64,000 nucleotides of DNA. Source: Alphaproteobacteria bacterium (GTDB lineage: Bacteria; Pseudomonadota; Alphaproteobacteria; UBA828). Below the pieces are notes generated by a model, which was not told where the DNA came from, did not search any database, and saw nothing but the letters and a program-made list of their open reading frames with translations. The stretch is from NCBI GenBank assembly GCA_022820945.1, contig JAJEEP010000178.1, positions 60,653 through 124,652 on the forward strand, read 5' to 3'. The position numbers were made by a program, and so were the translations under genes. Below are positions 13,529 to 57,344 of this stretch, one piece after another. Position 1 is the first letter of the stretch. Every line of letters starts with the position of its first letter.

Positions 13529-13532
13529 CCGC

Positions 13533-13561
13533 TTAATAGGGAGACGGGATGCCGGTGTCAA
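13533..13561 (-). promoter_or_regulatory. sigma-70-like promoter for groESL (TTGACA-N17-TATTAA) directly upstream of CIRCE
   Basis: The minus strand reads TTGACA ccggcatcccgtctccc TATTAA. The -35 box is at 13561-13556 and the -10 box at 13538-13533. Confidence 0.55.
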
Positions 13562-15192: not shown

Positions 15193-15453
15193 TTACGTAT
15201 CGTCCTCCTCAGCCGGCTCAGCTCCCTGATCGAACAACTGGATCGGCTGAACCGGCATGACCGTCGAAATCGCATGCTTGTAGACAAGCTGCGAATGGTC
15301 ATCGCGCTTGAGCAATACACAGAAATTGTCGAACCAGGTGATAATTCCCTGGAGCTTGACACCGTTCACGAGAAAGATCGTGACCGGCATTTTTCCTTTG
15401 CGCACGTGATTGAGGAAGACGTCCTGGAGACTGTGGGATCCCTTGCCAGTCAT
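15193..15453 (-). CDS. hfq: RNA chaperone Hfq
   Basis: ATG at 15453 inside ORF 15193..15516. The sequence is [59 protein letters not shown], carrying the Sm1 and Sm2 motifs. Confidence 0.95.
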
Positions 15454-15531
15454 GTGTTCCTCTATCCTTGCCGGCCCCCGCCTCCGAAGGACCGGGCGGC
15501 TGGCTTGCTCATGCAAGCATGCCTGCGTTGA

Positions 15532-16188: not shown

Positions 16189-17048
16189 CGGTTGCTACGC
16201 CCACCGCGGCAATAGGTGAGGTAGAGGTCGCGCAGCCGCAGAGTCACCGGCCCCGGCTCTCCGGTGCCGACCGGCTGACCGTCGACGCGAACGATGGCCC
16301 GGACGAACGACGTGGTGCTGGTGAGAAAGGCCTCGGGCGCGGCCTGCGCTTCGGCGAGCGTGAACGGTCGCTCGGCGACCTCGATCCCCGCCTCGCGAGC
16401 CAGCCGAATCACGGTCTGGCGTGTAATGCCGCCGAGGATGTTCGATTCGAGATCGCGGGTGATCACGCGGCCGACGTCGTCGACGATCCAGGCGTTGGTC
16501 GAGGAGCCCTCGGTGACCCGGCCTTGCGGGTCGATGAACCAGGCCTCGTAGGCGCCCTGCTCGCGTGCCTCCTGCTTGGCCAGGACGTTGGGAAGCAGGG
16601 AGACCGACTTGACGTCGCAGCGGCCCCAGCGCCCGTCCGGAATCGAGACCACCTCGGCGCCGCGGTCGGCCTCCGCGGTCTCGGGCCATTGAACCGGGCG
16701 CGCGGTGAGAACGATGGCGCCCTCAGCCTCCTCCGGGAAAGGATGATCCCGCGCCGCCGCGCCGCGCGTGACCTGCAGGTAGACCATGCCGTCCTTCACC
16801 CGATTGCGGCGAAGCACCTCGCGGGTGACCAGCTTGAGCGCGCGACGTGGCAAAGGGAGATCCATTCTCAGCTCATGAAGCGAGCGCTCCAACCGGTCGA
16901 GATGCGGCTCCTCGTCAATCACGCGGCCGCCGAAGACGGCTGCGACCTCATAGACCCCGTCGGAGAACTGGTATCCCCGGTCCTCGACATGAACGTGCGC
17001 CAAGTCGTGCCGCGTGTAGTGGCCGTTCACATAAGCGATACGGGACAT
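16185..17048 (-). CDS. class IV aminotransferase (D-amino-acid transaminase-like)
   Basis: 287-aa ORF. Contains HVEDRGYQFSDGVYEV, YLQVTRG and EGSSTNAW. There is a 4-nt overlap with the HAD gene. Confidence 0.8.
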   Translation of the reverse strand: MSRIAYVNGHYTRHDLAHVHVEDRGYQFSDGVYEVAAVFGGRVIDEEPHLDRLERSLHELRMDLPLPRRALKLVTREVLRRNRVKDGMVYLQVTRGAAARDHPFPEEAEGAIVLTARPVQWPETAEADRGAEVVSIPDGRWGRCDVKSVSLLPNVLAKQEAREQGAYEAWFIDPQGRVTEGSSTNAWIVDDVGRVITRDLESNILGGITRQTVIRLAREAGIEVAERPFTLAEAQAAPEAFLTSTTSFVRAIVRVDGQPVGTGEPGPVTLRLRDLYLTYCRGGRSNR

Positions 17049-41204: not shown

Positions 41205-42672
41205 TGGTTTGATTCCGGCGCCTGTCCCCAACGGGTTTCCGTCGCCGGGACGAGCCGAACGGTTCCAATCGTGGGGTACCGCGACACCCGTGACCAATCG
41301 CATCGTCGTCGTTTCCAACCGGGTCGCTCCGGTCAACGAGGGCAGGACCGCTGCGGGCGGTCTGGCCGTGGCGGTGCTCGCGGCGCTCAGGCGCTCCGGA
41401 GGCATCTGGTTCGGCTGGAGCGGCGAGGTGGTCGCCGCCCCCGGCGAAGACGTGAGTGTAACCGAGAGCGGACGGCTTGCCCGCGCCACCGTGGATCTCA
41501 GCGAGCGCGATTACGAGGAGTATTACAACCGCTTCGCGAACTCCACGCTCTGGCCGCTCTTTCATTACCGCGTCGATCTGGTCAACTTCGACCGCGGCAA
41601 CTACGTCGGCTATCGGCGCGTCAACAGGAAGTTTGCCCGCAGGCTGGCCGGCCTGCTGCAGCCCGACGACCTGATCTGGGTCCACGATTACCACCTGATT
41701 CCGCTTGGCCAGGAATTGCGCCGACTCGGAGTACGCAACCGGTTGGGTCTCTTTCTGCACATCCCCCTGCCGCCCCGGGAGCTCCTCGCCACCCTTCCGG
41801 TGCACAGGGAGCTCATGCGCTGCTTCTCCTTCTTCGACCTCGTCGGCTTCCAGACGGAGACGGACCGCAGTCACCTTCTCGACTACCTGGTTCGCGAGGC
41901 GCGAGCCCGGGTGGAGGAGCGGGAGGGAGGCGCAGTCGTTCGTGCGTACCGCAGGACCTTCAGGCTCGAGTCACATCCGATCGGCATCGACACCCGCTAT
42001 GTCGAGCGCAACGCGGCGAAGGCCGAGAGCAGCCGGGAGTCCGAGCGCCTTCGAGTCAGCCTCGCCGGCCGCCGGCTGATCATCGGCGTCGACCGGCTCG
42101 ACTACTCGAAGGGTCTGCCGCAGCGCTTCGATGCCTTCGCTCATCTTCTGCGGGCCTATCCCCGCCACCTCAACCGTGTCTCCCTGATGCAGATCGCGCC
42201 CCCCAGCCGCGGCGCCATCGCCGAGTATTCCGAGATCCGGCGCACGCTCGAGACGCTCGCCGGGCACGTGAACGGCGAGCTGGCGGACGTCGATTGGGTG
42301 CCGATCCGCTACCTGAACAAGAGCTTCGGCCGGCGCACCCTGTTCGGCTTCCTGCGCCAGGCGCAGGTCGGCCTGGTCACGCCCTTGCGCGACGGCATGA
42401 ACCTCGTCGCCATGGAATATCTCGCGTCCCAGCCGCCGGACGATCCGGGAGTCCTCGTGCTCTCGCGCTTTGCCGGTGCGGCCGAGCACCTGCCGGACGC
42501 GCTGATCGTGAATCCCTACGACGTGGAGGGCGTCGCCAAGACCATCCAGGCGGCACTCGCGATGCCCGTGGAGGAGCGCAGGGAACGCTGGCAGAGGTCG
42601 ATGCAGGTTCTCCGGTCGAACAGCGTGGAGGCCTGGTTCGAGCGGTTCGTCAGCCGGCTCTCCGAGGCATAG
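41194..42672 (+). CDS. otsA: alpha,alpha-trehalose-phosphate synthase (UDP-forming)
   Basis: 492-aa ORF. Contains [40 protein letters not shown] and [16 protein letters not shown]. The start is uncertain; GTG at 41290 is an alternative. Confidence 0.9.
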
Positions 42673-43459
42673 GCGGGGCGGCGCCGGCCACCCGTGTCAG
42701 CCAGTCCAGCAATTTCCCGACCGAATCGACCTGCACCGCCGCCCGCGTGGCCGCGCCTTCGCCGACACGGATGCTCACGCCGCCGCGCGCGTTGACGGCC
42801 TCGAATCCGTCTTCGTCGCTGACATCGTCGCCGCAGAACACCGGCGTCCGCCCGCGGAAAGGCGCTTCGCCCATGAACGCGTCTATGGCCGTGCCCTTGG
42901 TAATCCAGCACGGTCTGATCTCGAAGACGAACTTGCCTTCCACGACTTGCCAGCCCTGCGGCAGGTCCTCGAGGGCGGCGTTCACGACATCCCTGCACTC
43001 GTCTCGCAACGACGGGCCAAGGCGATAGTGCAGGCCAAGCGTGTATGTCTTGTCCTCGACGAGAACGCCCGGCCGCTCTGCTGCAAAATTCTCCAGCTGC
43101 GTCCGAACCGCGCGCAGATCGGTCCGCGGCAGGGGAGGACTCACGATCCCGCCGTCCGCCCTACGCCGTTCGAGCCCGTGCAATCCGGCAACGGCCGGGA
43201 CGGCGGTGCCCAGAAAGCCGTCGATCTGCTCGATGGGTCGGCCCGATACGATCGCTACGGCTCCATCCAACGCCTCGCGCAGAGCGACCAGGAGTGGAGG
43301 CAGGCCGTCCGGAACGACGACGGCCTCCGGGGTCGGCGCGATATCGACGATGCAGCCGTCAAAGTCGAGAAACAGCGCCCAGTCCAGGCACGGTTCAGGC
43401 AGAGTCATGGAACTCACAGTGCGATTAGGCGCCGAGCTTTGCCCCCTCCCCAAAGCCAC
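42650..43459 (-). CDS. otsB: trehalose-phosphatase
   Basis: 269-aa ORF (GTG start; ATG at 43408 is an alternative). HAD motif I is LFLDFDGCIVDI. Also has SGR and FCGDDVSDEDGF. Its 3' end overlaps the otsA 3' end by 23 nt (convergent). Confidence 0.85.
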   Translation of the reverse strand: MALGRGQSSAPNRTVSSMTLPEPCLDWALFLDFDGCIVDIAPTPEAVVVPDGLPPLLVALREALDGAVAIVSGRPIEQIDGFLGTAVPAVAGLHGLERRRADGGIVSPPLPRTDLRAVRTQLENFAAERPGVLVEDKTYTLGLHYRLGPSLRDECRDVVNAALEDLPQGWQVVEGKFVFEIRPCWITKGTAIDAFMGEAPFRGRTPVFCGDDVSDEDGFEAVNARGGVSIRVGEGAATRAAVQVDSVGKLLDWLTRVAGAAPPMPRRAG

Positions 43460-43710: not shown

Positions 43711-43941
43711 ATGTCGTCAACGGAAGCCCGCCTACGGACAATCATCAGCGACAGCTTCGACCTGGATCACGAGCCGGATTTCGATCGCGCGTTCAGTGAC
43801 GCCGGAGTCTCCTCGGTGGAAGCGGTTGCGTTTTACAAGACGGTCAATCAGGAGTTCGGCCTCAACATGGTTGCGGAGGACTGCCTGCAGTTCAATACGT
43901 TACGGGAGCTCCAGACGTATATCGATGCGCGCGCCGGGTGA
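43711..43941 (+). CDS. free-standing acyl/peptidyl carrier protein (phosphopantetheine attachment site DAGVSS)
   Basis: ATG at 43711 inside ORF 43600..43941, preceded by GGGAGA. The 76-aa sequence MSSTEARLRTIISDSFDLDHEPDFDRAFSDAGVSSVEAVAFYKTVNQEFGL fits the four-helix carrier pattern, with Ser in the DxGxxS position. Confidence 0.7.
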   Translation: MSSTEARLRTIISDSFDLDHEPDFDRAFSDAGVSSVEAVAFYKTVNQEFGLNMVAEDCLQFNTLRELQTYIDARAG

Positions 43942-43999
43942 GCATCCCAGGCAGCTCGTGCGCACTAACCGGATAACCCCCGGTAAGACTTGAGCAACA

Positions 44000-44029
44000 C
44001 CGGCCGTCTCCCTCGTTGGAGGCGGCCGG
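44000..44029 (+). other. strong intercistronic hairpin between the carrier-protein and hydrolase genes (12-bp stem with one G-U pair, 6-nt loop, no U-tract)
   Basis: ccggccgtctcc-ctcgtt-ggaggcggccgg, paired by hand. Confidence 0.55.
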
Positions 44030-44115
44030 CAAGTCTGACGGTCGGGCCCGTTGCGGTCGCTGCAGCGTTGTGTCCCGTCCAGAGCGGGCGTCGGGAGGAA
44101 GCCGGACCCTTCGCC

Positions 44116-45015
44116 ATGACGACAGAAGCGGTTTGGGAAATACCCCGGCCCCTTTCAACGCTGGATGTCCGCCTCGACGCCGATACAGTCGTCGCGGTGC
44201 GGCGGCACGGCAATCCGTCCGGCCCCAGGATCGTGCTGAGCCACGGCAGCGGACTCGCTGCCGACCTCTATTATCCGTTCTGGTCCCTGCTCGCGAACGA
44301 CTTCGACCTGATGGTCTACGACCTCAGGAACCACGGTTGGAACAGCGTCGGCGCCCAGAAGGATCACAATGTTCCGACCATGATCCGCGACCACGACATC
44401 ATTCTCGAGTCCATCGACAGCACCTATGGAAGCAAGCCGACCGTCGGCATGTTTCACTCGCTGACCACGGTCGTGACGCTGCTCTCGTTCAGCAAGCTCT
44501 ATTCCGCGTTGGTTCTCTTCGATCCGCCCCTGACCAGGCCCGGCGCGAGCCATACGGAGCTTCACGACGCCGCCGAGCGCGGCGCGGCTCTGATTCGGCG
44601 GCGGGGACAACACTTCAGGAGACGGGAAGACTTTATCGAAATTCTGGGAATCTTTCCGACCTTCAAGCGCGCCGTTCCCGGCGTACACGAACTCATGGCC
44701 CGCACGACGCTCCGAGAATCTGCAAGCGAGGAAGGCTATGAGCTTCGCTGCCCCCGCGAGTACGAAGCGCAGATGATGGATTACGCCCGGAGCTTCTTCC
44801 CGCTGCTGGACCTCGACCTGCTCGACTGCCCGACGAAGATCATCGGCGCCGATCCCACCCTGCCGCACGCGTACTTGCCGACGCTCGACCAGCGAATTGT
44901 CTCGGCCATGGACTACGATTTCATTCCCGAAGCGACACACTTCCTGCAACTGGAAAAACCCGCGGAGTGCGCGGCCGTTACCCGCGAGTTCATGGAGCGG
45001 CACGGCCTCTCTTAG
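44116..45015 (+). CDS. alpha/beta-fold hydrolase with a non-canonical nucleophile elbow (F-H-S-L-T)
   Basis: ATG at 44116 inside ORF 43990..45015. The oxyanion region is IVLSHGSGLAADLYYPFW. The elbow is VGMFHSLTT in place of GxSxG. The C-terminal PEATHFLQLEKP supplies the usual catalytic His context. Confidence 0.7.
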   Translation: MTTEAVWEIPRPLSTLDVRLDADTVVAVRRHGNPSGPRIVLSHGSGLAADLYYPFWSLLANDFDLMVYDLRNHGWNSVGAQKDHNVPTMIRDHDIILESIDSTYGSKPTVGMFHSLTTVVTLLSFSKLYSALVLFDPPLTRPGASHTELHDAAERGAALIRRRGQHFRRREDFIEILGIFPTFKRAVPGVHELMARTTLRESASEEGYELRCPREYEAQMMDYARSFFPLLDLDLLDCPTKIIGADPTLPHAYLPTLDQRIVSAMDYDFIPEATHFLQLEKPAECAAVTREFMERHGLS

Positions 45016-45062
45016 CACACGCCCGACCGGCACCCGCCAACGCACAAGATTCGACGCTGGGG

Positions 45063-48000
45063 CTATTGGCCAGGCATCGGCAACCAAAAGCGCCGGCGCT
45101 GGAACGGATAGCCGGGCAGGGAGATGCGCCGCCGGGTCTCGCCGGCGAAAAGCCCCGAGAAGGAGACGCCGAGCCCCGCCTCGTAAGCCAGGGCGACCGC
45201 CTCCACGAAGGCACTGTCGGCAAGTTCTGCCGCCTCCTCCTCGCCACCAGCCGACTGCCGCTGGCTCGACAACATCTTCGGCGCGGATATGTTTTCCCCT
45301 GACTTCGGCCAAGCCTCCGCCAGCAGCGGCGCCAGTGCAGCATCGGGGCCGATCTCGATGACGACCTCCACGCCCAATTCCGCCAAGTTACCGGCACAGG
45401 CGTCGATTGCGAGTGGAGCGCCCGCCGCCTGGCGGTGCCAGTACGCCCCATCCAGTACCTGGTCCGGATCCATCGCGCGGCCGGTGAGGCCGCTCATCAG
45501 GCTGACTGACGGTGCGGCGAATGCGATGCCTTCCAGCGCCGCCTCTGTAACGCTTCTCGCCGCTGCCAGCCGCAACCCGTCCTCCAGGCTGACCACGCCG
45601 GCGGCCTGTGCCGCCGCGATCTCGCCCGCGCCCTGCCCGGCCACCACGCTCGGCCGGATGCCGACGCTCGCCCACAGTGCCGTGAGCGCGCACGCCAGTG
45701 CGTAGGTTGCGGGCCGCGCCCACGCCGGATCGCTCAGCCCTCCCTCGGAGCCGGGTCCGCCGAACATCGCTTCGAGCAGCGAGGCCTCGCGATCCTCCCC
45801 GAGTACCGCATCGCAACGGTTGAGCACGGAGCGCACGACCGGCTCGCGCGCGAAGAGCGCGCCGCCCATGCTGACCCACCGGTCGGTCTCGCCGGTGTAG
45901 ACGAACGCGATCTTCTTCGCCGCTCCCGGGTCACGCTCCGCGTCCGCATGCGCGTGCGCGGTGAGGCTCTTTCGCAGCGATGCCGCGTCCTGGAACACCA
46001 CGCCGGCCCGGTGGCCGAAGTGGCTGCGGCCGACGGCGGCCGTCCAGGCCATGTCCGAGAGCACGGTGTCGGACGCGGCGCCGTCTGCCGCCAACGCGTC
46101 GGCGTGCTCGTCGAGCCACGAGAGATATCGTCCTGCCAGCGCCCGGAGCGCCTCGCCGGACTTGGCCGAGAGCGGCAGCAACCGCGTGTCGCGCGCGGAG
46201 AAAGCCTCCTCGGACGGCGTCAGACTCGCGAGCGGCTCCGGCAGGGTCGCTGCGACGCTCTGTGCGGCGCCCGCATACGAATGCCCTTCGTTGCCCTCGG
46301 CCGGGGTGCCATTCGTCGGCCCGTACCCCTCCAGCACGACGTGCGCGTTCACGCCCGAAATCCCGAAGGCGCTGACCCCGGCACGGCGCGGCCGCCCCGC
46401 CTCCTCCGGCCAATCCGTCGTCTCCGACACCACCCGCACCGGCAGCCGGTCCCAGTCCAGGTGTGGATTGGGCTCATGGAAGTGCAGGTTCTTCGGAATT
46501 GCACCGTGCCGCATCGCCAGCGCGACCTTGATCAGGCCGGCAACGCCCGCCGCCGATTCCAGATGACCGAGGTTGGTCTTGACCGAGCCGATGAGCAGCG
46601 GGCGGTCAGGGCTCCGCTCCCGGCCATAGACCACAGCCGCCGCGTTCACCTCGATAGGATCGCCCAGCCCCGAACCGGCGCCGTGCGCCTCCAGATAGTC
46701 CACGTCCGACGGCAAGACCCTCGCCTGTGCGAGCGCTTCCTCGATCACCCGCTCCTGCGCCGGGCCGTTCGGCACGGTCGGTCCCGCGCTCGCTCCGTTC
46801 TGGTTGACCGCCGCCCCGCGGATCACGGCCCAGATGCGGTCGCCGTCGGCCTCCGCCTCGGTGAGCCGCTTGAGGACGACCATGCCGCAACCCTCGCTCC
46901 GCACGAAGCCATCCGCCGCGGCATCGAAGGTCCTGCAACGGCCGGTCCGCGACAGCATTCCAAGCGCTGCCATCTCGACGGTGAGCCCAGGCGACAGCAC
47001 AGCGTTCACGCCGCCCACCAGCGCCATGTCCACCTCGCCCTGCCGCAGGCCCGCGACCGCCTGCTGCACCGTGACCAGCGATGCCGCGCAGTTGAGCATC
47101 ACCGGATTGGTCGGCCCCATGAGACCCAGCTTGAACGCGACGCCGCCGACTGCGGTGCTGCTCGCGGTACCGAGATAGCTGAGGCTGTCGTTACCGGCCA
47201 ACATCATCAGGTCGCGGTATTCGCTGGTGGAGAGCCCGGCATAGACCCCGGTGCGGCTCCCCCGCAGACAGTCCGGATCGATCCCTGCGTCCTCGAGCGC
47301 CTGCCAGGTCGTCTCCAGGAGCAGCCGCTGCTGCGGGTCCATCATGCGCACACCGATAGGCGTCATCCCGAAGAAGCGCGCATCGAAGCGGTCGATCCCG
47401 TCGACGAAGCCGCCTTGTCTCCAGGGACGGTCGTCGGCTGCCGGGTCGCCGGCAACGCCGGTCCAGATTCCGCCATCCTGGCGCCCGTCCGTCACCGCGT
47501 CGTGACCCTCTTCGAGCTGACGCCAGAAGGACTCCAGGTCCGCCGCACCGGGGAAGCGGCAGGCCATCCCCACGATGGCGATGCCGTCTTCCTCGCTCCG
47601 CATCGGCGCCTGCGGGCTCGGTTCGGTCGCAGACTCGGGGGCCGGGGCCGCGATCTCCTCGCCAAGCTCCCCCGCCAGATGGCCGGCGAGAACCAAAATG
47701 TTCGGATAGTCGAACACCAGCGTGTTCGGCGCCGCGTAAGCGCCGGAGAACGCGCGATTCAGGCGGTTCCGCAACTCGACCGCCATCAGCGAATCCATGC
47801 CGAGGTCGAAGAAGCCAACCGTCGGCGCCGGCGTCGACGGCAGCCGCAGCACCGCCTGCACCTCCTGCTGCAGGAAGGACACCAGGAGCTCCTCGCGTCC
47901 CGCCGCGGGTGTCGCGGCGAGCTGCGCTAGCAGGTCTTCCGACGAGGTCGCGGCTTCGTCGTCCGCAGACGCGTCGGAGAGTAGGTCCTCGAACAGGGGT

Positions 48001-51000
48001 GGGCGGCTCTCGAGGGCCTCGCCGAACGCTGCCCAGTCCGCCGTCAGCACGGCAGCGGCAGCGGTGTCCTGCCGCAGCAGACGGTCGAGCGCGCTGAAGC
48101 CCTGCTCCGGGGTGAACCAGCCGGTGCCCAATGCCTCCCGCCGCCGGGCGATGCGCTCGCGCTGCTCCTCCGCCTCGCCGAGCCCCGACCAGGCACCCCA
48201 GGCGATGGCCTGCCCGGGCAGCCCCAGCGCGCGCCGGTGGGCCGCGAGTTGATCGAGGAACGCGTTGGCCGCCGCGTGGTTGGCCTGCCCCGGATTGCCC
48301 AGAATGCCGGCCACGCTCGAGAAGATGACGAAGAGGTCGAGGTCGCGATCGGCAGTCGCGCGGTGAAGATGCCAGGCGCCCAGCATCTTCGGCCACAGCA
48401 CGGTCTCGAAGCTATCCCAGCTCTGGTTCCCGAGCGCGGCGTCGGCCAGCACGCCGACGCTGTGGATCACCCCGGCGAGCGGCGGCAGCTCCCGATCCAT
48501 TCGCGCGAGCATGGCATTGAGCGCAGCCGGATCCGTCACGTCGGCAATCTCGACCTCGATGCTGAATCCCCGGGCGCGCAGCGCTTCGATCGCCTGTTCC
48601 GCCGCCGCGTCAGGCGGCCTGCGGCCGTTCAGCACGACCGTGCCCGCGCCGCGCTCGGCAAGCCATTCGGCGAGCGCGCAGCCGATGCCGCCCAGGCCGC
48701 CGGTCACCAGGTAGGTTCCGTCCTGCCGCAGCCGGCCCGTCCTGAACGACGGCAAAGTCAAGACGATCTTGCCGATGTGCCGCGCCGCGCGCATGAAGCC
48801 CATCGCGGCGCTCGTCTCGGTGAGCGGCCATCTGGTGTGCCTGAGTGGCGCAAGCTCACCCGTTGCCATGCGCGCCAGCACCTCTTTCAGGGCCGCTCCC
48901 GGCCGAGCCGGGTCATGCTGCTTCAGGGTGTAGAGATCCAGGATCGAATAGGCGACGTCGGGCCGCAGCGCCGCCATCTCGCCCTCGCTCAGGATGTCCC
49001 GCCGGGCGAGCTCCACGAAGCGCCCGCCGTCCGCGAGGCAGGCGAGGCTCGCCTCGATGAAGCCCTCGCCGGTCAGGCTGTTCAGCACCACGTCGACCCC
49101 GGCACCGCCTGTGGCTGCGAGGACTTCCTCACCGAACGCAATCGAACGGCTGTCGAACACGTGCTCGACGCCGAGCGAGCGGAGGTAGGCCTGCTTGGGC
49201 GCGCTCGCCGTGGCGAACACCTCCGCGCCCGCAGCCTGCGCAAGCTGGATGGCCGCGAGACCGACGCCGCCCGCGCCGGCGTGAATCAGCACGCGGTCCC
49301 CGGCCTTCAGCCCGGCAAGCTCGTACGACAGCACGCATGTCACGAACACCGAGGGGATCGTGGCGAGCGCCGTCGCGGACACGTCCGGCGGTGCCACCGC
49401 CACAAGTTCCTCGCGCGTCACCACCTCCGGCCCGAAGGTGCCGAAGGCGAAGCCGGCCACGCGGTCACCCACTGAGACGGTAGTTACATCCGCACCGGTT
49501 TCGACGATCCGGCCGCAGAACTCCTCGCCGAGCAGTCCCTCCTCGACCAGGCCCATGGCCCGGAAGACGTCGAGGAAGTTGAGCCCGCAGGCTTCGACCG
49601 CGACGCGCACCTCCTTCGACTCCAGGGCACGCGCCGCCAGCTGCTGCACCTGCAGTGTCTCGGCTGCGCCGCCCTCGTCCGGCGCCAGCACCCAGTCCGT
49701 CTCCTCCGGCAGGACAAGACGCTCCGAGCCGGGGCCCGACCGCACCAGCCGGGCCGCTTGGCGGCGCCCCTGGCGGTGCGCGATGTGGTTCTCCGAATCC
49801 GGGAACAGCAGCTCGTCGGCGAGGACGGCCTGCGGCTCCGCTGCCTCGGGGTCGAGATCGAGCATCCGGGCCTGCAGCTGGGGCGCCTCCCGCGCCACCA
49901 CCTTGCCCAGGCCCCAAAGGGAAGCGCCGGCCAACTGCCCAACCCGCTCCCGCTCCAGCACCTGCGCACCCCGGGTGACGAACCAGAGGCCCTTCTCGGG
50001 CACGGCGTCCGCGTCTGCGATGCCCTGCACGAGCGCGAGCGCGCTTGCCGCCGCGCGTTTCGCATCCGCCGCCAGGTCTGCGGTCGTCGCATCCGCCCCG
50101 TGGCCGTCCTGCGCGACGAGGTGCACCGCCCCGGCTAAGGGCACGTCCGTGGGCAGGCCTTCGACGAGCGATCGCCAGGACTCGCGGCGTTCCATCTCGA
50201 CCGAAGCCGCAACGATCCCGGCCTCGTTCTCTGCCGCCGCGCCCGTGCCAGCCGCAACATCGCTGGCCAGCACCACCCGCTGGTTCTGGGCAGCCAGTTG
50301 CGCCGCGAGCGCCTCCGCCACGCCGCCCCGGTCGGCAGCCAGAATCCAGGCGCCCTCGGGCAGGTCGATCTCGGCCGGGCCCTGCGCCACGATCACGCCC
50401 CGATCCGGCAGGCCGGCCGTCTCCGACCGGTCCACGCCGAGAACCTCGGATTCCGTGAACCCCGCATCGGCCAGCCCCTGACGCCACACGTCGGGCCCGG
50501 CGAGGGCGTGGTTCGGGCGATAGCGATCGGCGAAGCGCCACCATCCGTCCAGCTGGCCGAAGATCAGGTCCATCCAGCCCCGGCCGCGCTGGTTCTCCAG
50601 CGCCACCAGCAGCCCCGACGGCGCCAGGAGCGCCCGGCAGTGGGCGAGCGTCTCGTCCAGATGGCGCGTGGCGTGCAGCACGTTGGCCGCGATGACCATG
50701 TCGTATGCGTGGGGCTCGAAGCCCTGCTCCACCGGATCCTTCTCGATATCCAGCACCCGGTAGTCGATCGACGCCTCGGCGCCGCCGAAGCGCGACTCCG
50801 CCTCCGCGAAGAAGCCCGCGGAGATGTCGGTATACATGAAGTTGAACCGTCCGGCCGGTAGCTCGGGCAAGATGGTTTCGGTCGCCGAGCCGATGCCGGC
50901 GCCCACCTCCAGCACGCGCAGACGCCGCCCGTCCGGCACGTCGTCCACGAGTGTGCGAACCACCTCGCCGATCATGCGGTTCGCCGCGCGCCAGACCGGC

Positions 51001-54000
51001 GCGAGCCGATACAGATCGCCGGCCGTCGGCTCCGCGTCGCCGAACAGCAGCGACAGCGGATCCTCTTTGCCGCGCAGCACCTCGGGCAGGGCACCGGCGC
51101 AGCGCCCAAACAGCCCGATCTCGTTCGCCGCGTGCGGGAAGCGCCCGGTCACCCCGTCCAGAAACGCCTCGGAATCGCGCGGCATTTCGTCCGGCAGCGG
51201 ATCGTTCGCTCCGATCGTCACGACGAAGCCCTTGTCCTGCACCTGCAACACGCCCGAACGAGCCAGGATCTCGAGCATCCGGCGAAGCAGATGCGCGTGC
51301 TCGGGTAGCACCTCGAGGCGCTCGCGCAGCTCCTCCGGATTCACGACCGCGCCTGCCCCGCGCTCCCACCCAAGTTTCTCCAACGCCGCGAGCGCATGGC
51401 ACCACGCCGCCCGCTCCATCTCCCCTTGCAGGTCGGTCTCGTCCGCGACCTCGACCCCCTCGTCGGTCAGATAGCGCGAGAACGGCTGCGAGCGGGCCGC
51501 CGCGGCGGACGGCATCGGCAGGAAGTCCGCCGGCAGCATGCCCGGCGGCAAGGCGCAATCACGCCAGACGACCTCGTAGAGCAGCTCGTCGATCCCTGCC
51601 ACACCCTCGAGCAGCGTCGCCCGCGTAGCCCGCTTCACCGTGAAGCCCGCCAGCTCCCCGATGAGCGTCCCGCCCTGGTCGTAGAGGCGAAGGTCGGCGG
51701 CATGAACCTCCGGCACTCCCTCCCTCTCGGCGTCCGCCTCCTCGCCGGCCCGGCCTTCCCTCACGGTCACGTGGCAGAGCAGGCGTTCCGGCACGCCTCC
51801 GGCCAGCCACAGCCGCTCCCACGCGAACGGGAGATAGGTGATCCCCTCCTCGCCTCCGTCCGGGCTGCGCGCTGCGCCGAAGGCCTGGAAACAGCCGTCG
51901 AGCACGAGCGGATGCACGTCGAGCGGGCCGCGCTCGAGCCCGGCAGGCAGCGCCACTTCGGCGATCGCCTCGCCCGGCCGTGCCCAGAGACCCTCCACCG
52001 TGCGGAAGGAGGGGCCGAGCTCGATCCCGACGGCGGCCTTGGCGCGGTAGTAGGCGGCGAGGTCAACCGGCGCGAGCGCAGCCTTCAGCCCCTCGATATC
52101 GAGCGGTGGGCCAACTTGCGCCGGGCCGGCAGGACTCGTCGAGACGCGGCCCTCCGCGTGCAGCGACCATGCGTCCTCGCCCTCGCCCCGGCTGAGGATG
52201 CGGACCCGGCGAGCCACCTCGTCCTCGGCATCGTCGAGCAACACCTGCACCCGCCGGCCCGCTTCGGCGGAGTCGTCCTCGGCGTCCTCGCCAGCGAAGA
52301 CCAGCGCGCTCTGCATCTGGAAGTCGTCGATGACGACCGCCTCGCTCCCTTCGGCTATGGAGGCCGCCGCGGCCATGGCGCCATAGAGCGCGCCCGGCGC
52401 GATCAGCCGGCCGAAGACGCGGTGGTCGGCGAGCCACGCAGGATCGGAGGGGAAGACCTCCGTATCGAAGGCGATCTCGCCGCTGGCGGAGTCGTGGCGC
52501 GTACCCAGCAAGGAGTGGCCGGCAGCCGTCCGCCGCCGCTTGGGCGCCTCGACCCAGTAGCGCTCGCGCTGGAAGGGATAGCCCGGAAGCGCAATCCGGC
52601 ACCGCTCCTCGCCCGCGAAGAGCCCGTCGAACCGTAGCCGGAGCCCCGCTTTGTATGCGCCGGCGACAGCCTCGACAAAGCCGCCGCCGGAACCCGGCGC
52701 AGGCGGCTCCTCATCCTTCGCCGGCCGAATCAGGCTCGACATCACCGCCGGTGCGGTCCCGGCCGTCTCAGGCCACGCCATGGTCGTCATCGGACCCAGC
52801 ACGGCATGGGGACCGATCTCGATGACCGCATCGACGCCGACTTCCGCCAGCGTCTCGATGCAGGCGCGGAAGGCCACGGGTTCGCGCGCCTGGCGCCGCC
52901 AGTACGCCGCATTCGGCGCCTCGCCCGATTCCAGCGCACGGCCGGTCAGGTTGCTGACGAAGGTGACGGACGGCGACGCGAAGGGGATGGTCGAGATCGC
53001 GGCTTCCATGTCGCCCAGCGCCGGCTCGATCATGGCGCTGTGGTAGGCAGGGCTCCTGCGCAGCCGCGCGACACGGACCTCCTCCGCCTCGAAGCGCGCG
53101 AGCAGCGCCTCCACGTCCGCCTTGGAGCCGCTCACCACCTGGTGAGCGCCGTTGTCTGCCGCGACGCTCAGGCCCGGCCCGTCCGACGCCGCGTTCTGTT
53201 CCTCCACTGCTGCGGCCACGCGGGGTGGCGGCGCGAAGATAGCCCCCATCGCGCCCTCGCCGGGAAGCGCGCCGATCAGGCTTCCCCGCGCCGCCGCGAA
53301 ACGCAGGCCCTCCTCCAGGCTGAAGACGCCGGCGGTGTGCGCAGCCGCGATCTCTCCCAGGCTATGTCCCAGCACCACGTCCGGCCGGACGCCGATGCTC
53401 TCCCAAAGCGCCGCGAGCGCGCATTCGAGCGCATAGATCGCCGGCTGCTTCCACTGCGGATCGTCCAGTTCGCCCGCTGCGCCGGGCCGGCCGAACATCA
53501 CGTCCAGCAACGAGGCGCCGCCTCTGTCCTCCGCGAGCACCTTGTCGCAGCGGTCGAGCACTGCCCGGAACACCGGCTCGCTCGCATAGAGCGCTTCGCC
53601 CATGCCGGGCCACTGGCTCGCCTGCCCAGTGCAGACAAACGCGACCTTCGTCGCCTCGGGCGAGGTCGGTCCCTCGTCCGCCTCGACAATCGCCCGCAAA
53701 CCCTCCCGCAGCGACTCCGCGTCCCGGAACGCCACCCCCGCCCGGTGGCCAAAGTGGCTCCGGCCGATGCCGGCCGACCATGCCATGTCGGAGAGCACGG
53801 GATCGGACGCCATGCCCTCGGCCGCAATCGCCTCCCCATGTTCGTCGAGCCAATCGAGATGGCGTCCTGCCGCGTCGCGAAGCGCCGCCGCCGACTTTCC
53901 GGAGAGCGGCAGCAGGCGCGTTCCGCGCGGGGCAAGCCCTCCCGCTGCCTGCGCAGGCCCGCCGACCGACGCCGGCAGCGAGACTTCGACCGGCCGCGCG

Positions 54001-55427
54001 GCGCCCGTGGCCCACCCGGCGCCGTTCGGCGCGCCGTATCCCTCCAGCACGACGTGGGCGTTCGTCCCCGACCAGCCGAACCCGCTCACGCCCGCCAGTG
54101 GTGCGCGGTCTGCACGGGCGGGCCACGGCGTCGGCGCGGACGTCACCTGCAGTGGCATCCGTTCCCAGTCCATCTCCGGATTGGGGTTGCGAAAATGGAG
54201 GTGCCTGGGGATGACCCGCCGATTCATCGCCAGCACGGTCTTTATCAGCCCCGCGACGCCCGCCGCGGATTCCAGATGGCCGATGTTGGTCTTCACCGAG
54301 CCGATCAGCAGTGGGCGGCGGGCGTCCCGACCCTGCCCGTAGACCGCCGCGGTCGCGTCGATTTCGATCGGGTCGCCTACCTCGGTGCCGGTCCCGTGCG
54401 CCTCCAGATAGTCGATATCCAATGGCCGGACTCCGGCCCGCTCGAGCGCCGCTCGGATCACCCGTTCCTGCGCCGCCCCATTCGGAACCGTCAGACCCTG
54501 GCTCGCCCCGTCCTGGTTCAGTGCTGTGCCCCGGATGACCCCCCATATGCGGTCGCCGTCGGCCTCCGCATCGGTGAGCCGCTTGAGCACCACGATGCCG
54601 CAGCCCTCGCCCCTGACATATCCGTTGGCGGAGGCATCGAAGGTCTTGCATTGGCCATCCGGCGCCAACATCCCCGCGTTGGCCCGAAACTCCAGAAGCC
54701 GACCGGAGAGAATGACGTTTACCCCGCCGGCGAGCGCGATGTCCGCATCGCCCCGCTGCAGGCCCGAGACTGCCTGGTGCGTCGCGACCAGGGATGACGA
54801 GCAGGCGGTGTCCACTGCCATAGCCGGTCCCCCGAGCCCGAGCGCGAAGGCGACCCGGCCGATGGCCGTGTTGAGGGACGTGCCGGTGACCGCGTAGAGA
54901 CTGGCGGCAGGTTCGGCAGACCCCGCCTCCTCGCTGGCCTCCAGGATCAGCCCCCGGTAGTCGTTGTTGCTGATCCCCGCGTAGACGCCGGTACGGCTGT
55001 CCTTCAGCAGATCGGGATCGATGCCCGCGTCTTCGAGCGCCCGCCAGCTCGTTTCCAGGATCAACCGTTGCTGAGGGTCGAGCAGTTGCGCTTCCACCGG
55101 CGAAATGCGGAAGAAGGCGGCGTCGAACCGTTCAATGACGTCGGGGTCGAGATAGGCGCCGAAACGGCAGGCCTGGATCTGACCCGTATCGTTGGGGAAA
55201 AGCGCGCCGATACGCCCGATGCCGGAGCCCGGCACGCCCTCCTGCACGGCGTTCCCGCCCTCTTCGAGCAAACGCCAGAAGGCGGAAATGCCGTCGGCGC
55301 CGGGGAAGCGGCAGGCCATGCCGACGATCGCCACGGGCTCGTTCGACCCATAGCTTCCCGGCGTGCGACCCTCGTCAGGAGCGCGCGCGTCGTCGGCGCG
55401 ATTGCCGGGCGCTTCTCGTTCCGTCAT
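45063..55427 (-). CDS. type I polyketide synthase, 3454 aa, domain order KS-AT-DH-cMT-(psiKR)-ER-KR-ACP-KS-AT0
   Basis: A single uninterrupted ORF. All domain motifs were read from the translation (see the domain features below). RBS GGGAGA lies upstream of the ATG at 55427. There is no loading module, TE or second ACP. Confidence 0.95.
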   Translation of the reverse strand: MTEREAPGNRADDARAPDEGRTPGSYGSNEPVAIVGMACRFPGADGISAFWRLLEEGGNAVQEGVPGSGIGRIGALFPNDTGQIQACRFGAYLDPDVIERFDAAFFRISPVEAQLLDPQQRLILETSWRALEDAGIDPDLLKDSRTGVYAGISNNDYRGLILEASEEAGSAEPAASLYAVTGTSLNTAIGRVAFALGLGGPAMAVDTACSSSLVATHQAVSGLQRGDADIALAGGVNVILSGRLLEFRANAGMLAPDGQCKTFDASANGYVRGEGCGIVVLKRLTDAEADGDRIWGVIRGTALNQDGASQGLTVPNGAAQERVIRAALERAGVRPLDIDYLEAHGTGTEVGDPIEIDATAAVYGQGRDARRPLLIGSVKTNIGHLESAAGVAGLIKTVLAMNRRVIPRHLHFRNPNPEMDWERMPLQVTSAPTPWPARADRAPLAGVSGFGWSGTNAHVVLEGYGAPNGAGWATGAARPVEVSLPASVGGPAQAAGGLAPRGTRLLPLSGKSAAALRDAAGRHLDWLDEHGEAIAAEGMASDPVLSDMAWSAGIGRSHFGHRAGVAFRDAESLREGLRAIVEADEGPTSPEATKVAFVCTGQASQWPGMGEALYASEPVFRAVLDRCDKVLAEDRGGASLLDVMFGRPGAAGELDDPQWKQPAIYALECALAALWESIGVRPDVVLGHSLGEIAAAHTAGVFSLEEGLRFAAARGSLIGALPGEGAMGAIFAPPPRVAAAVEEQNAASDGPGLSVAADNGAHQVVSGSKADVEALLARFEAEEVRVARLRRSPAYHSAMIEPALGDMEAAISTIPFASPSVTFVSNLTGRALESGEAPNAAYWRRQAREPVAFRACIETLAEVGVDAVIEIGPHAVLGPMTTMAWPETAGTAPAVMSSLIRPAKDEEPPAPGSGGGFVEAVAGAYKAGLRLRFDGLFAGEERCRIALPGYPFQRERYWVEAPKRRRTAAGHSLLGTRHDSASGEIAFDTEVFPSDPAWLADHRVFGRLIAPGALYGAMAAAASIAEGSEAVVIDDFQMQSALVFAGEDAEDDSAEAGRRVQVLLDDAEDEVARRVRILSRGEGEDAWSLHAEGRVSTSPAGPAQVGPPLDIEGLKAALAPVDLAAYYRAKAAVGIELGPSFRTVEGLWARPGEAIAEVALPAGLERGPLDVHPLVLDGCFQAFGAARSPDGGEEGITYLPFAWERLWLAGGVPERLLCHVTVREGRAGEEADAEREGVPEVHAADLRLYDQGGTLIGELAGFTVKRATRATLLEGVAGIDELLYEVVWRDCALPPGMLPADFLPMPSAAAARSQPFSRYLTDEGVEVADETDLQGEMERAAWCHALAALEKLGWERGAGAVVNPEELRERLEVLPEHAHLLRRMLEILARSGVLQVQDKGFVVTIGANDPLPDEMPRDSEAFLDGVTGRFPHAANEIGLFGRCAGALPEVLRGKEDPLSLLFGDAEPTAGDLYRLAPVWRAANRMIGEVVRTLVDDVPDGRRLRVLEVGAGIGSATETILPELPAGRFNFMYTDISAGFFAEAESRFGGAEASIDYRVLDIEKDPVEQGFEPHAYDMVIAANVLHATRHLDETLAHCRALLAPSGLLVALENQRGRGWMDLIFGQLDGWWRFADRYRPNHALAGPDVWRQGLADAGFTESEVLGVDRSETAGLPDRGVIVAQGPAEIDLPEGAWILAADRGGVAEALAAQLAAQNQRVVLASDVAAGTGAAAENEAGIVAASVEMERRESWRSLVEGLPTDVPLAGAVHLVAQDGHGADATTADLAADAKRAAASALALVQGIADADAVPEKGLWFVTRGAQVLERERVGQLAGASLWGLGKVVAREAPQLQARMLDLDPEAAEPQAVLADELLFPDSENHIAHRQGRRQAARLVRSGPGSERLVLPEETDWVLAPDEGGAAETLQVQQLAARALESKEVRVAVEACGLNFLDVFRAMGLVEEGLLGEEFCGRIVETGADVTTVSVGDRVAGFAFGTFGPEVVTREELVAVAPPDVSATALATIPSVFVTCVLSYELAGLKAGDRVLIHAGAGGVGLAAIQLAQAAGAEVFATASAPKQAYLRSLGVEHVFDSRSIAFGEEVLAATGGAGVDVVLNSLTGEGFIEASLACLADGGRFVELARRDILSEGEMAALRPDVAYSILDLYTLKQHDPARPGAALKEVLARMATGELAPLRHTRWPLTETSAAMGFMRAARHIGKIVLTLPSFRTGRLRQDGTYLVTGGLGGIGCALAEWLAERGAGTVVLNGRRPPDAAAEQAIEALRARGFSIEVEIADVTDPAALNAMLARMDRELPPLAGVIHSVGVLADAALGNQSWDSFETVLWPKMLGAWHLHRATADRDLDLFVIFSSVAGILGNPGQANHAAANAFLDQLAAHRRALGLPGQAIAWGAWSGLGEAEEQRERIARRREALGTGWFTPEQGFSALDRLLRQDTAAAAVLTADWAAFGEALESRPPLFEDLLSDASADDEAATSSEDLLAQLAATPAAGREELLVSFLQQEVQAVLRLPSTPAPTVGFFDLGMDSLMAVELRNRLNRAFSGAYAAPNTLVFDYPNILVLAGHLAGELGEEIAAPAPESATEPSPQAPMRSEEDGIAIVGMACRFPGAADLESFWRQLEEGHDAVTDGRQDGGIWTGVAGDPAADDRPWRQGGFVDGIDRFDARFFGMTPIGVRMMDPQQRLLLETTWQALEDAGIDPDCLRGSRTGVYAGLSTSEYRDLMMLAGNDSLSYLGTASSTAVGGVAFKLGLMGPTNPVMLNCAASLVTVQQAVAGLRQGEVDMALVGGVNAVLSPGLTVEMAALGMLSRTGRCRTFDAAADGFVRSEGCGMVVLKRLTEAEADGDRIWAVIRGAAVNQNGASAGPTVPNGPAQERVIEEALAQARVLPSDVDYLEAHGAGSGLGDPIEVNAAAVVYGRERSPDRPLLIGSVKTNLGHLESAAGVAGLIKVALAMRHGAIPKNLHFHEPNPHLDWDRLPVRVVSETTDWPEEAGRPRRAGVSAFGISGVNAHVVLEGYGPTNGTPAEGNEGHSYAGAAQSVAATLPEPLASLTPSEEAFSARDTRLLPLSAKSGEALRALAGRYLSWLDEHADALAADGAASDTVLSDMAWTAAVGRSHFGHRAGVVFQDAASLRKSLTAHAHADAERDPGAAKKIAFVYTGETDRWVSMGGALFAREPVVRSVLNRCDAVLGEDREASLLEAMFGGPGSEGGLSDPAWARPATYALACALTALWASVGIRPSVVAGQGAGEIAAAQAAGVVSLEDGLRLAAARSVTEAALEGIAFAAPSVSLMSGLTGRAMDPDQVLDGAYWHRQAAGAPLAIDACAGNLAELGVEVVIEIGPDAALAPLLAEAWPKSGENISAPKMLSSQRQSAGGEEEAAELADSAFVEAVALAYEAGLGVSFSGLFAGETRRRISLPGYPFQRRRFWLPMPGQ
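45318..45917 (-). other. PKS domain AT0: degenerate acyltransferase remnant (aa 3171 to about 3370)
   Basis: GQGAGE replaces GHSLGE (Gly3266 stands in place of the nucleophile, nt 45630-45632). YTGETDRW replaces TGQASQW. About 89 residues, covering the small subdomain and the xAxH His, are missing relative to AT1. The protein then ends at LPGYPFQRRRFWLPMPGQ. Confidence 0.8.
46323..47588 (-). other. PKS domain KS2 (aa 2614-3035); Cys-His-His retained but motifs divergent
   Basis: Contains IAIVGMACRFPG. MLNCAAS (Cys2780, nt 47088-47090) replaces DTACSSS. EAHGAGSGLGDPIE replaces the HGTGT motif. KTNLGHLESAAG is present. Confidence 0.85.
47658..47915 (-). other. PKS domain ACP (about aa 2505-2590)
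   Basis: GFFDLGMDSLMAVELRNRL; Ser2546 is at nt 47790-47792. Confidence 0.9.
48108..48716 (-). other. PKS domain KR (about aa 2238-2440) with the catalytic Tyr replaced by His
   Basis: Contains TYLVTGGLGGIGCALAEWLA, Lys in WPKMLGAW, and Ser in FSSVAG. The expected NYAAANAFLD motif reads NHAAANAFLD (His2384, codon CAC, nt 48276-48278). Confidence 0.85.
48753..49655 (-). other. PKS domain ER (about aa 1925-2225)
   Basis: Contains VRVAVEACGLNFLDV, the NADPH motif VLIHAGAGGVGLAAIQLA, and ends HIGKIVLT. Confidence 0.85.
50388..51110 (-). other. PKS domain C-methyltransferase (about aa 1440-1680)
   Basis: SAM motif I is VLEVGAGIGSAT (Leu1506). Motif II is YDMVIAANVLHAT. Motif III is LLAPSGLLVALE. 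Boundaries are approximate. Confidence 0.8.
51633..52517 (-). other. PKS domain DH (aa 971-1265)
   Basis: HxxxGxxxxP appears as HRVFGRLIAP (His1002). Also has YYRAKAAVGIELGPSF and the DxxxQ motif as DGCFQ. Confidence 0.85.
52788..53648 (-). other. PKS domain AT1 (aa 594-880); catalytic motifs intact
   Basis: Contains FVCTGQASQWPGMG, GHSLGE (Ser689, nt 53361-53363), an Arg in the AAARG context, PAYHS and VIEIGPHAVL. Confidence 0.9.
54036..55337 (-). other. PKS domain KS1 (aa 31-464)
   Basis: Contains VAIVGMACRFPG, DTACSSS (Cys209, nt 54801-54803), EAHGTGTEVGDPIE and KTNIGHLESAAG. Ends NAHVVLEGY. Confidence 0.9.
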
Positions 55428-55525: not shown

Positions 55526-55720
55526 TCATTTTGCCTGCTCGTTCGCTGCCGGCGCCGCCACGCGAATCGTGACGATGTCGGTGCCACGATACTGCTGGTG
55601 ACGGACGGACGACGCGAGGCGGCGCAACAGGCGAAGCGAGACCTCCTGCTCGGCCGAGACCTCGCTGGGCTGGTCGCCGAGCAGCGCGAGGCGATCCTGG
55701 ATATTGCCCTCTCGCGACCC
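55526..55720 (-). pseudogene. orphan C-terminal fragment (64 codons plus stop) of an unidentified gene, truncated at its 5' side by the IS21 remnant
   Basis: My own translation of the third minus frame gives ...EGNIQDRLALLGDQPSEVSAEQEVSLRLLRRLASSVRHQQYRGTDIVTIRVAAPAANEQAK*. Codon third positions are strongly GC-biased. The frame is closed upstream by the TGA at 55723-55721 and has no start codon. Its stop lies 98 nt upstream of the PKS ATG. Confidence 0.45.
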
Positions 55721-56173: not shown

Positions 56174-56626
56174 CTACCTCGCCCTTTGGCTCACATCGAA
56201 CGGGTCATGAGTCGACAGTTCCGGAAAGAGGGAAAAATCGCGATCCCGCGTGAACAGCACCTCTACGCCATGCGTGACACACACTGCAGCGATGCGGGCA
56301 TCGTGAACCACTCCGCCGACGACGTGCGGTCGGTTGACGAACCTCTCCAGCACTTCCATGAAATCGTCCGTCTCGCCAATCATGCGGTTGGATGGCGACA
56401 TTGCCCAAGCCTGGAACTGGCGCCACGCTTGGCCCGGCGTGGTTGCTTCGTCCTTCCAGATGCGACGGTTCGTCACCACGCTCAGGAACTCGTAACAGCA
56501 TGGCCACGGAATGGCCCAGACACGGTCTCCTTCGGCAAGTTCGGTCATGACTGCGTGCGCCGCGTCGCCCAGGCGCGACTCGCGACGGTGCGCATACACC
56601 AACACATTGGTGTCTACGGCGATCAC
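56174..56626 (-). CDS. vapC: PIN-domain ribonuclease toxin VapC
   Basis: GTG at 56626 overlaps the vapB stop (GTGA). The sequence is [13 protein letters not shown]...[23 protein letters not shown], with the conserved acidic residues of PIN domains. Confidence 0.85.
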
Positions 56627-56871
56627 CGCGTACCGGAATCGCCGTAGATCATTTCGCGCAACTCCGGCCAGGAATATCGTTCCAGCGGATCGGCCGCTTC
56701 CGGGTCGCCCACTCTCATGTCCGTCAGCTTGTATCCGCCGCGAGGCCTCGCCGACGCAAGCACGCAACGAAGCCCGTCCTCGACTACGGCGCGCAGCGGG
56801 CGCCCCGTTTCCTTGGCATGACGCTTGGCTCGCGCGAGCAATTCGTCGTGGATGTCCAGCGTCGTCTTCAT
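56623..56871 (-). CDS. vapB: type II antitoxin VapB-like
   Basis: 82-aa [38 protein letters not shown] is typical of antitoxins paired with PIN toxins. Confidence 0.8.
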
Positions 56872-57268: not shown

Positions 57269-57344
57269 TGGTGCCGCAGGAGAGATTCGAACTCCCGACC
57301 CATGCATTACGAATGCATTGCTCTACCGACTGAGCTACTGCGGC
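57269..57344 (-). tRNA. tRNA-Thr (anticodon CGU), CCA encoded
   Basis: I hand-folded GCCGCAGTAGCTCAGTCGGTAGAGCAATGCATTCGTAATGCATGGGTCGGGAGTTCGAATCTCTCCTGCGGCACCA. It has a 7-bp acceptor stem, a GCTC/GAGC D stem, an ATGCA/TGCAT anticodon stem with loop TTCGTAA, and a T arm with a TTCGAAT loop. Confidence 0.9.

Follow-up and report, generated by a model that had tools for sequence, protein, structure and literature searches.

A probable Sup polyketide synthase cluster of three core genes on the chromosome of an uncultured alphaproteobacterium

We examined a 64-kb stretch of DNA (hereafter the window) of contig JAJEEP010000178.1, from the alphaproteobacterial assembly GCA_022820945.1, focusing on a type I polyketide synthase (PKS) gene and the two small genes beside it, which together probably constitute a cluster of the Sup (sponge symbiont ubiquitous PKS) group. 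The SupA-type PKS gene spans positions 45063..55427 of the minus strand and is a single uninterrupted frame of 10.4 kb, with no stop codon or frameshift and with a GC content at third codon positions (GC3) of 0.86. Its deduced product, of 3454 amino acids (aa), has the order KS1-AT1-DH-cMT-ER-KR-ACP1-KS2-AT2, that is, a ketosynthase (KS), an acyltransferase (AT), a dehydratase (DH), a C-methyltransferase (cMT), an enoylreductase (ER), a ketoreductase (KR) and an acyl carrier protein (ACP) domain, followed by a second KS and a second, dead AT. Two genes on the plus strand converge on its 3' end, one for a free-standing ACP (43711..43941; 76 aa; Pfam PP-binding; motif GVSSVE) and the other for an alpha/beta hydrolase (44116..45015; 299 aa; Pfam Abhydrolase_6). 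An original prediction, made from the letters of the window alone, had described both genes in this arrangement, and the independent gene call of ENA for the same DNA gave identical coordinates for them. The ENA copy of the window DNA stops within the PKS gene, and an exact-sequence look-up with the PKS protein returned no match.

Pfam placed on the PKS, in aa, a KS at 30-412, an AT at 597-886, a DH at 971-1272, a methyltransferase (MT) at 1499-1611, an ER at 1937-2223, a KR at 2237-2414 and a PP-binding domain at 2518-2584, followed by the second KS and the second AT; there was no loading module, no thioesterase (TE) and no second in-cis ACP. Residue conservation was scored on 56 aligned PKSs, and further homologues were inspected by regex. 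KS1 (aa 30-455; 54063..55340, on the minus strand like all the PKS domains below) contains Cys209, His344 and His384, together with the motifs DPQQ and HGTGT, and the solved structure nearest to it is the CurL KS-AT (687 bits, versus ~360 for LovB). AT1 (aa 597-886; 52770..53639) has GHSLGE and the Arg, and its specificity motif, PAYH, differs from the classic YASH and HAFH and takes the form xA(Y/F)H throughout the family; its Ser, His and Arg are invariant in 56/56 members. The DH (aa 971-1272; 51612..52517) shows HxxxGxxxxP and the catalytic Asp1177, with His, Pro and Asp invariant in the family. The core of the cMT (aa 1499-1611; 50595..50933) contains the S-adenosylmethionine (SAM) motif LEVGAGIG, the ER (aa 1937-2223; 48759..49619) the NADPH motif HAGAGGVG, and the in-cis ACP1 (aa 2518-2584; 47676..47876) the motif LGMDSL. 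The Cys/His/His of KS1 (where the N-terminus is present), the GxG of the MT, Lys and Ser of the KR and the Ser of ACP1 are likewise invariant across the 56 PKSs. All catalytic residues of module 1 (KS1-AT1-DH-cMT-ER-KR-ACP1) are thus intact, with a single exception in the KR.

The KR (aa 2237-2414; 48186..48719) has the expected Lys2347 and Ser2371, and His2384 (codon 48276-48278) in place of the catalytic Tyr. This His aligns unambiguously to the Tyr of the MAS and AmphB KRs, and the exchange occurs in all 56 aligned members and in every regex match among the other homologues. Our searches found no explanation or literature for this family-wide change from Tyr to His. Because the KR is the most conserved domain of the PKS, with 41% invariant columns and an omega of ~0.09 versus close relatives, it would very probably be active by a variant mechanism.

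The C-terminal tail of the PKS consists of KS2 and the remnant of AT2. KS2 (aa 2605-3030; 46338..47615) contains Cys2780 (in LNCAAS), His2915 (in EAHGAGS) and His2955; the Cys and the second His are invariant in the family, only one of the 56 members lacks the first His, and omega is 0.16-0.21. KS2 is ~57% identical to KS1 and, at the nucleotide level, KS1-AT1 and KS2-AT2 share ~70% identity and have near-identical linkers; the tail is therefore an internal duplication. In the AT2 remnant (aa 3135-3440; 45108..46025), GQGAGE stands in place of GHSLGE, with Gly for Ser, neither the Arg nor the His of xAxH is left, and GQxSQ is degenerate. The domain is ~65 residues shorter than AT1, the gap lying between these catalytic motifs, and it is the least conserved of the PKS (7% invariant columns; omega ~0.33, three times that of AT1). 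At the position of the Ser, the aligned PKSs have Gly (39), Asp (7) or Ser (3). Three Nitrospirales loci (L035, L039 and L053) keep GHSLGE or GQSLGE in AT2 and have lost the Arg (LRFAAALDDLQ) and the His of xAxH, both of which are gone in all members, the Nitrospirales GHSLGE copies included; therefore, the loss of catalytic residues in the family did not start with the Ser. As a domain, AT2 is a scaffold without catalytic function. The protein ends in ...LPGYPFQRRRFWLPMPGQ*, which corresponds to the post-AT linker, and its homologues end at the same place.

The original prediction had anticipated much of this architecture. The single frame with its domain order, the stop exactly at the post-AT linker, the lack of any loader, TE or second in-cis ACP, and the assignment of Cys209 in KS1 all agree with our results. 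Its 'dead AT' is indeed inactive, and by more than a point mutation, having lost Ser, Arg, His and ~65 residues; likewise, the motifs of a complete reducing module are present, but the exchange of Tyr for His in the KR had been overlooked.

Screening by tblastn detected a homologue of the small ACP in 72 of 83 related loci, with a conserved motif G-V-S-S-(V/M/L)-D and an omega versus relatives of 0.14-0.24; the protein scores 22 bits against the NCBIfam AcpP model, whose cut-off is 66. The hydrolase has a predicted triad of Ser115, Asp246 and His275, with an elbow F-H-S-L-T and not GxSxG. Residues H43, H114, S115, D246 and H275 are invariant in 47 sequences, H43-G corresponding to the oxyanion element, and omega is 0.09-0.14. 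The AlphaFold2 (AF2) model (pLDDT 78.5) shows a lidded alpha/beta hydrolase fold, for which Foldseek retrieved generic alpha/beta hydrolases (TM 0.55-0.68, 12-19% identity), including lactonases and the CurM thioesterase. The best PDB match by sequence was PME-1 (E=2e-4). With such a match, generic folds and NCBIfam scores far below cut-off, we assigned no specific function to the hydrolase.

The locus belongs to a very large family. KS2-AT2 has thousands of homologues, the best of them 55-77% identical and found in metagenome-assembled genomes (MAGs) of Rhodospirillales, Gemmatimonadota, Latescibacteria, Nitrospira, Acidobacteriota and Nitrospinae. For the hydrolase there are 2582 homologues; the top 120 match it at 67-92% identity, almost all with the same length of 299 aa. 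Its gene occurs in at least 586 species-representative genomes of GTDB. We compared the best 80 loci from these genomes, all of them from uncultured MAGs, assigned to Alpha- and Gammaproteobacteria, Acidobacteriota, Nitrospirales and Latescibacterota, and also to Spirochaetia, Dehalococcoidia, Binatia and Gemmatimonadaceae. Where the origin could be checked it was a sponge, as for the Theonella symbiont Ca. Porisulfidus TsSOB and for Aplysina aerophoba bin65; most other sponge origins were inferred from isolate names. The isolate names jk18x (that of the closest GTDB relative) and p16x, together with the name of the ENA contig that holds the window DNA, KELL22-1, are consistent with a study of Caribbean Ircinia (PMC9531527).

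Gene calls and a tblastn screen placed the PKS next to the hydrolase in ~68 of the 80 loci, in three gene orders: the convergent ACP>hydrolase><PKS of the window, a co-directional PKS>ACP>hydrolase, and hydrolase>PKS. The linkage of PKS, ACP and hydrolase despite a changing order is good evidence for their joint function, as the original prediction had supposed in calling the two small genes the pathway-like neighbours of the PKS. Versus the closest relatives, omega was ~0.19 for the whole PKS gene and 0.09-0.2 for its catalytic domains. The PKS, the small ACP and the hydrolase are thus a conserved unit under purifying selection.

Other genes recur beside the cluster. A 588-aa NCS2-type permease adjoins it in 15 of the 80 loci, an Sfp-type phosphopantetheinyl transferase (PPTase) lies beside it in 20, and a Rieske oxygenase in at least six. 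The last two, present beside the cluster in close relatives, are missing from the window, in agreement with the earlier statement that no PPTase was visible. That no transporter was visible is true of a full gene, but a relic of one lies directly upstream of the PKS start (55541..55705, minus strand): it comprises the last ~55 residues of an NCS2-type (SupE-like) permease, preceded by stop codons, and matched the 588-aa permease by tblastn with 64% identity over 55 aa (E=1e-15). A permease, SupE, has been described for Sup (PMC3908369), and the recurrent 588-aa protein, matched by description, probably corresponds to it. The SupE of clone pAPKS18 has the accession ABE03914, and GenBank SupA proteins stem from the clones pSW1H8, pAPKS18 and pAE27P20.

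The Sup group was described in 2007 and has been found again many times since (PMC4245539, PMC3908369, PMC9426513, PMC10308959). It comprises small monomodular PKSs that dominate the KS amplicons obtained from sponges with primers on DPQQ and HGTGT (PMC4245539) and that have been proposed, by correlation, to make mid-chain-branched fatty acids (PMC4245539, PMC4210886). The group is confined to high-microbial-abundance sponges and its source organisms have been uncertain (PMC4245539, PMC3908369, PMC4210886); SUP-like clusters were reported in MAGs of Chloroflexota, Spirochaetota, Proteobacteria and Acidobacteriota, independently of taxonomy (PMC9426513), and a sponge-specific KS clade in mostly Gemmatimonadetes and Alphaproteobacteria (PMC10308959). 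Reviews up to 2021-2022 still term the product 'supposed'.

The locus resembles Sup in several respects. The PKS has one complete KS-AT-DH-MT-ER-KR-ACP module, monomodular, reducing and methylating as in Sup, with the caveat of the KR His. Both primer motifs, DPQQ and HGTGT, are present in KS1, KS2 having HGAGS. The genomes that carry the hydrolase spread over many phyla and are sponge-derived where the origin could be checked, and the closest relatives of KS1 come from sponge-type MAGs with the same mix of Gemmatimonadota and Alphaproteobacteria as in PMC10308959. An associated permease may be a further resemblance, with SupE in Sup and the relic here. The window copy differs from Sup in being minimal, as it lacks the PPTase and the Rieske oxygenase and retains the permease only as a relic. 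We therefore consider it likely that the locus is a chromosomal Sup cluster of an uncultured alphaproteobacterial sponge symbiont, with three core genes. On this reading, the copy is an intact Sup cluster stripped of its accessory genes, and the locus is a typical member of a long-known family, with nothing categorically new. Membership was set by architecture, host range and accessory genes as described in secondary sources, plus the original domain map of SupA, which reportedly has an extra C-terminal KS-AT and a cluster with ACP, hydrolase and PPTase genes. The Sup cluster consists of supA plus small accessory genes (Fieseler et al. 2007, AEM 73:2144; Hochmuth et al. 2010, ChemBioChem 11:2572). 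Our literature searches found no printed SupA domain map and no functional study.

Four other kinds of system were compared with the locus, and none of them is its family. The Swf (sponge widespread FAS-like, where FAS is fatty acid synthase) group, with SwfA, SwfB and SwfC, is also sponge-specific, monomodular (KS-AT-DH-ER-KR-ACP) and found across phyla, and SwfA has no methyltransferase, no second KS-AT and no DPQQ, shows HATGT, and is accompanied by a reductase-sulfotransferase (swfB) and a radical SAM protein (swfC) (PMC3908369). The window PKS, in contrast, has an MT, DPQQR, HGTGT and KS2-AT2, its partners are an ACP and a hydrolase, and no reductase-sulfotransferase or radical SAM gene lies near it. 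PKSs like mycocerosic acid synthase (MAS) and animal FAS share the order KS-AT-DH-(MT)-ER-KR-ACP and make reduced, methyl-branched chains iteratively. MAS, too, has no TE and depends on a separate enzyme for off-loading; among PDB entries it matched the KR best and also matched KS-AT strongly. However, MAS has no MT and derives its branches from methylmalonyl-CoA, its KR has the canonical Tyr, and neither a trailing KS-AT nor a discrete ACP is present. In sequence, both KS1 and KS2 lie nearer to the cis-AT modular PKSs, CurL for example, than to MAS or FAS. A MAS-like PKS or type I FAS was thus discarded on account of the MT, the KS-AT after the ACP, the His for Tyr in the KR and the PAYH of AT1.

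The fungal highly reducing PKSs (HR-PKSs) LovB and LovF, acting with LovG, have the order KS-AT-DH-cMT-ER-KR-ACP, work iteratively with programmed C-methylation from SAM, lack a TE and are unloaded by a separate alpha/beta hydrolase. Unlike the window PKS, they have no second KS-AT and no discrete ACP, and they are distant in sequence, LovB being among the PDB matches; the hydrolase here has no specific similarity to any solved hydrolase. MAS/FAS and the fungal HR-PKSs with LovG are functional analogies, not the family. A multi-module cis-AT assembly line was also rejected, as the PKS has a single complete module without a loader or a TE, followed by a KS and a dead AT, with an ACP in trans.

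From the domain content, we propose that AT1 would load malonyl and that module 1 would build a fully reduced acyl chain, the cMT adding a SAM-derived methyl branch in a programmed cycle. The chain would pass from ACP1 to the cysteine of KS2, which would condense it with malonyl held on the free-standing ACP; because AT2 cannot load, this malonyl would be supplied by AT1 or by the FabD of the cell. The Ser-Asp-His hydrolase would then free the product from the discrete ACP, hydrolysing the bond or passing the acyl group on to a lipid acceptor. Iterative chain building with a terminal condensation by KS2 is plausible, and we put forward this specific order of events only tentatively. The expected product is a methyl-branched fatty acyl lipid, as proposed for Sup.

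Several observations weigh against this assignment to Sup and against the activity proposed for it. The KR lacks the canonical Tyr, so that a fully reducing cycle hinges on the His variant, and a final condensation by KS2, which has no dedicated reductive domains, would leave a beta-keto thioester and not a saturated acid. The permease of the window is only a relic, and no PPTase gene was found anywhere in the 64 kb. No protein named Sup was among the matches of our searches with KS2-AT2, the hydrolase or the KS1 amplicon region, the last of which returned mostly short fragments. Lastly, the product of Sup has never been demonstrated; the original prediction would have counted the locus as described given a near-identical architecture already linked to a known metabolite, and Sup answers to this only in part, its link to methyl-branched fatty acids being by correlation, not by experiment.

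A different course of events within the same family is possible, if somewhat unlikely. Module 1 would act once on a fatty acyl starter and insert a single methyl-branched C2 unit, KS2 would move or extend the chain onto the free-standing ACP, and the enzymes of type II FAS (FabD, FabF, FabG, FabZ and FabI) would elongate it, leaving the branch at mid-chain, before the hydrolase released or transferred the finished acid. With no loader and a dead AT2, the malonyl of the discrete ACP must come from another transferase, and the enzymes of type II FAS naturally act on substrates held by a discrete ACP; furthermore, there are no reductive domains after KS2, and the proposed products of Sup are mid-chain-branched acids (PMC4245539). 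However, neither the window nor the 80 loci have fab genes linked to the cluster, the small ACP falls far below the NCBIfam AcpP cut-off (22 versus 66 bits), and the sequence gives no sign of whether the module acts singly or iteratively.

Sup may use undescribed chemistry, combining a His-type KR with chain termination by way of an active KS, a gutted AT serving as scaffold, a discrete ACP and a highly conserved non-GxSxG hydrolase, and either handing a branched intermediate to type II FAS or freeing a beta-keto product. The His-type KR and the features of the termination unit are universal in the family and under purifying selection; even so, we regard this chemistry as doubtful. Few biosynthetic genes of sponge microbiomes are as abundant and widespread as those of Sup, and after nearly twenty years their product is only inferred. 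Interest remains in this unsolved product and in three oddities of the family, namely the KR with its His, a KS2 that is active beside a dead AT scaffold, and the atypical hydrolase. The window offers a compact and intact three-gene version (PKS, ACP and hydrolase) suited to heterologous reconstitution, and the family comparison yields the mutational targets KR His2384, KS2 Cys2780 and hydrolase Ser115.

That the product is not a fatty acid at all seems unlikely. In this case the extension by KS2 would stay unreduced and the hydrolase would free a beta-keto acid, which would decarboxylate to a methyl ketone, or would perform other chemistry such as lactonisation. KS2 does have a full Cys-His-His with no reductive domains after it, and the hydrolase is unusual, extremely conserved, with an elbow that departs from GxSxG and numerous invariant His, Asp and Cys residues, its fold neighbours including lactonases and the CurM thioesterase. 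But the KR, DH and ER of module 1 could act in trans on the discrete ACP, and the fold matches of the hydrolase are generic (TM 0.55-0.68, 12-19% identity).

Comparison with individual loci revealed exchange and decay among copies of the cluster. The closest loci, L008 and L009, are 88% identical to the window at the nucleotide level from position 43489 through the PKS, with unrelated flanks and a PPTase gene directly before that of the ACP. Conversely, L088 (ENA ERZ25070786, locus 1-16536) shares with the window the flank containing ilvD, GH15, otsA and otsB (89.5% nucleotide identity), whereas its cluster is more divergent (77-81%) and has an extra Rieske oxygenase gene and a 107-aa gene ahead of the ACP. 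Similarity to the window PKS is also mosaic at the level of domains, L011 and L005 being closest to it in AT1 and DH (L011 also in AT2), and L015 in KS1, MT, ER, KR and KS2. Together, the opposite patterns of L008/L009 and L088 and the mosaic identities suggest that sup alleles are exchanged and recombine among sponge symbionts. The PKS of L088 is interrupted by a DruA-family gene between ACP1 and KS2 and is broken a second time at the ER/KR boundary. In L010, a close relative on a 3-Mb contig whose hydrolase is 94% identical, the PKS (10943-13720, minus strand) is cut to ACP1-KS2-AT2 (925 aa), without module 1, and the cluster there looks decayed. These cases point to an occasional decay of sup clusters in relatives.

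That the window copy is itself a decaying relic, in the course of being lost and making nothing, is nevertheless quite improbable. Its permease survives as 55 codons, the PPTase and Rieske genes of close relatives are absent, and relatives such as L010 (ACP1-KS2-AT2 only) and L088 (DruA-family gene inside the PKS) have decayed, but the 10.4-kb frame is free of stop codons and frameshifts, its catalytic residues are intact, and, versus the closest relatives, the catalytic domains have an omega of 0.09-0.2, the hydrolase one of 0.09 and the ACP one of 0.2. Finally, we consider it highly improbable that this is an orphan polyketide system with no described counterpart, since, although the hydrolase and the ACP fall outside curated families (generic Pfam matches, NCBIfam below cut-off), no close solved structure exists and three protein searches retrieved no protein named Sup, homologues that share the architecture and the neighbours number in the thousands in sponge MAGs, and the literature describes just such a sponge-specific, monomodular, methyl-branching PKS group of many phyla. 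The original prediction had proposed precisely this, naming the locus the strongest candidate for an undescribed system, and here it fails: the family is very large and crosses phyla, its checkable members come from sponges, and it fits Sup.

Among homologues, we also noted that many on long contigs, such as P0004, P0010, P0028, P0032, P0090 and P0094, are called as separate proteins of 1300-1460 aa, with the C-terminus of the ER followed by KR-ACP-KS-AT, and that in L027 and L034 the two PKS open reading frames overlap. The split may be a recurrent frameshift or assembly error, or a natural one within the ER.

The cluster has no distinctive GC content within a window whose GC is high throughout (64-72%). 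Scans for promoters and terminators at both cluster ends found nothing above shuffled expectation. On the far side of the PKS, between the permease relic and a tRNA-Thr(CGT) gene near the cluster (57269..57344, minus strand), lie genes for a vapB-like antitoxin (56623-56871, minus strand) and a PIN/VapC toxin (within 56174-56767, minus strand), a layout that looks like the edge of an island. A search for an att-like direct repeat of at least 11 nt of the tRNA region found none and, with an undistinctive GC, the idea of a genomic island led to no result despite the adjoining tRNA-Thr. The remainder of the window is ordinary alphaproteobacterial chromosome. The side with the vapBC pair and tRNA-Thr continues with hemY, a mitofilin-like gene, tsaD and an FGE-sulfatase gene. 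Upstream are metG, tmk, holB, tatD, a groEL-like gene, hflX, trkA and ntrY, and then, on the same side, hydantoinase A/B, an ABC transporter, ilvD, a GH15 hydrolase and otsA/otsB. The last three, a trehalose gene set (GH15 trehalase-like enzyme, otsA and otsB; 39426-43408), directly adjoin the cluster, and the homology to L008 and L009 begins at 43489, ~80 bp beyond the end of otsB, so that the cluster DNA shared with them has its left edge there.

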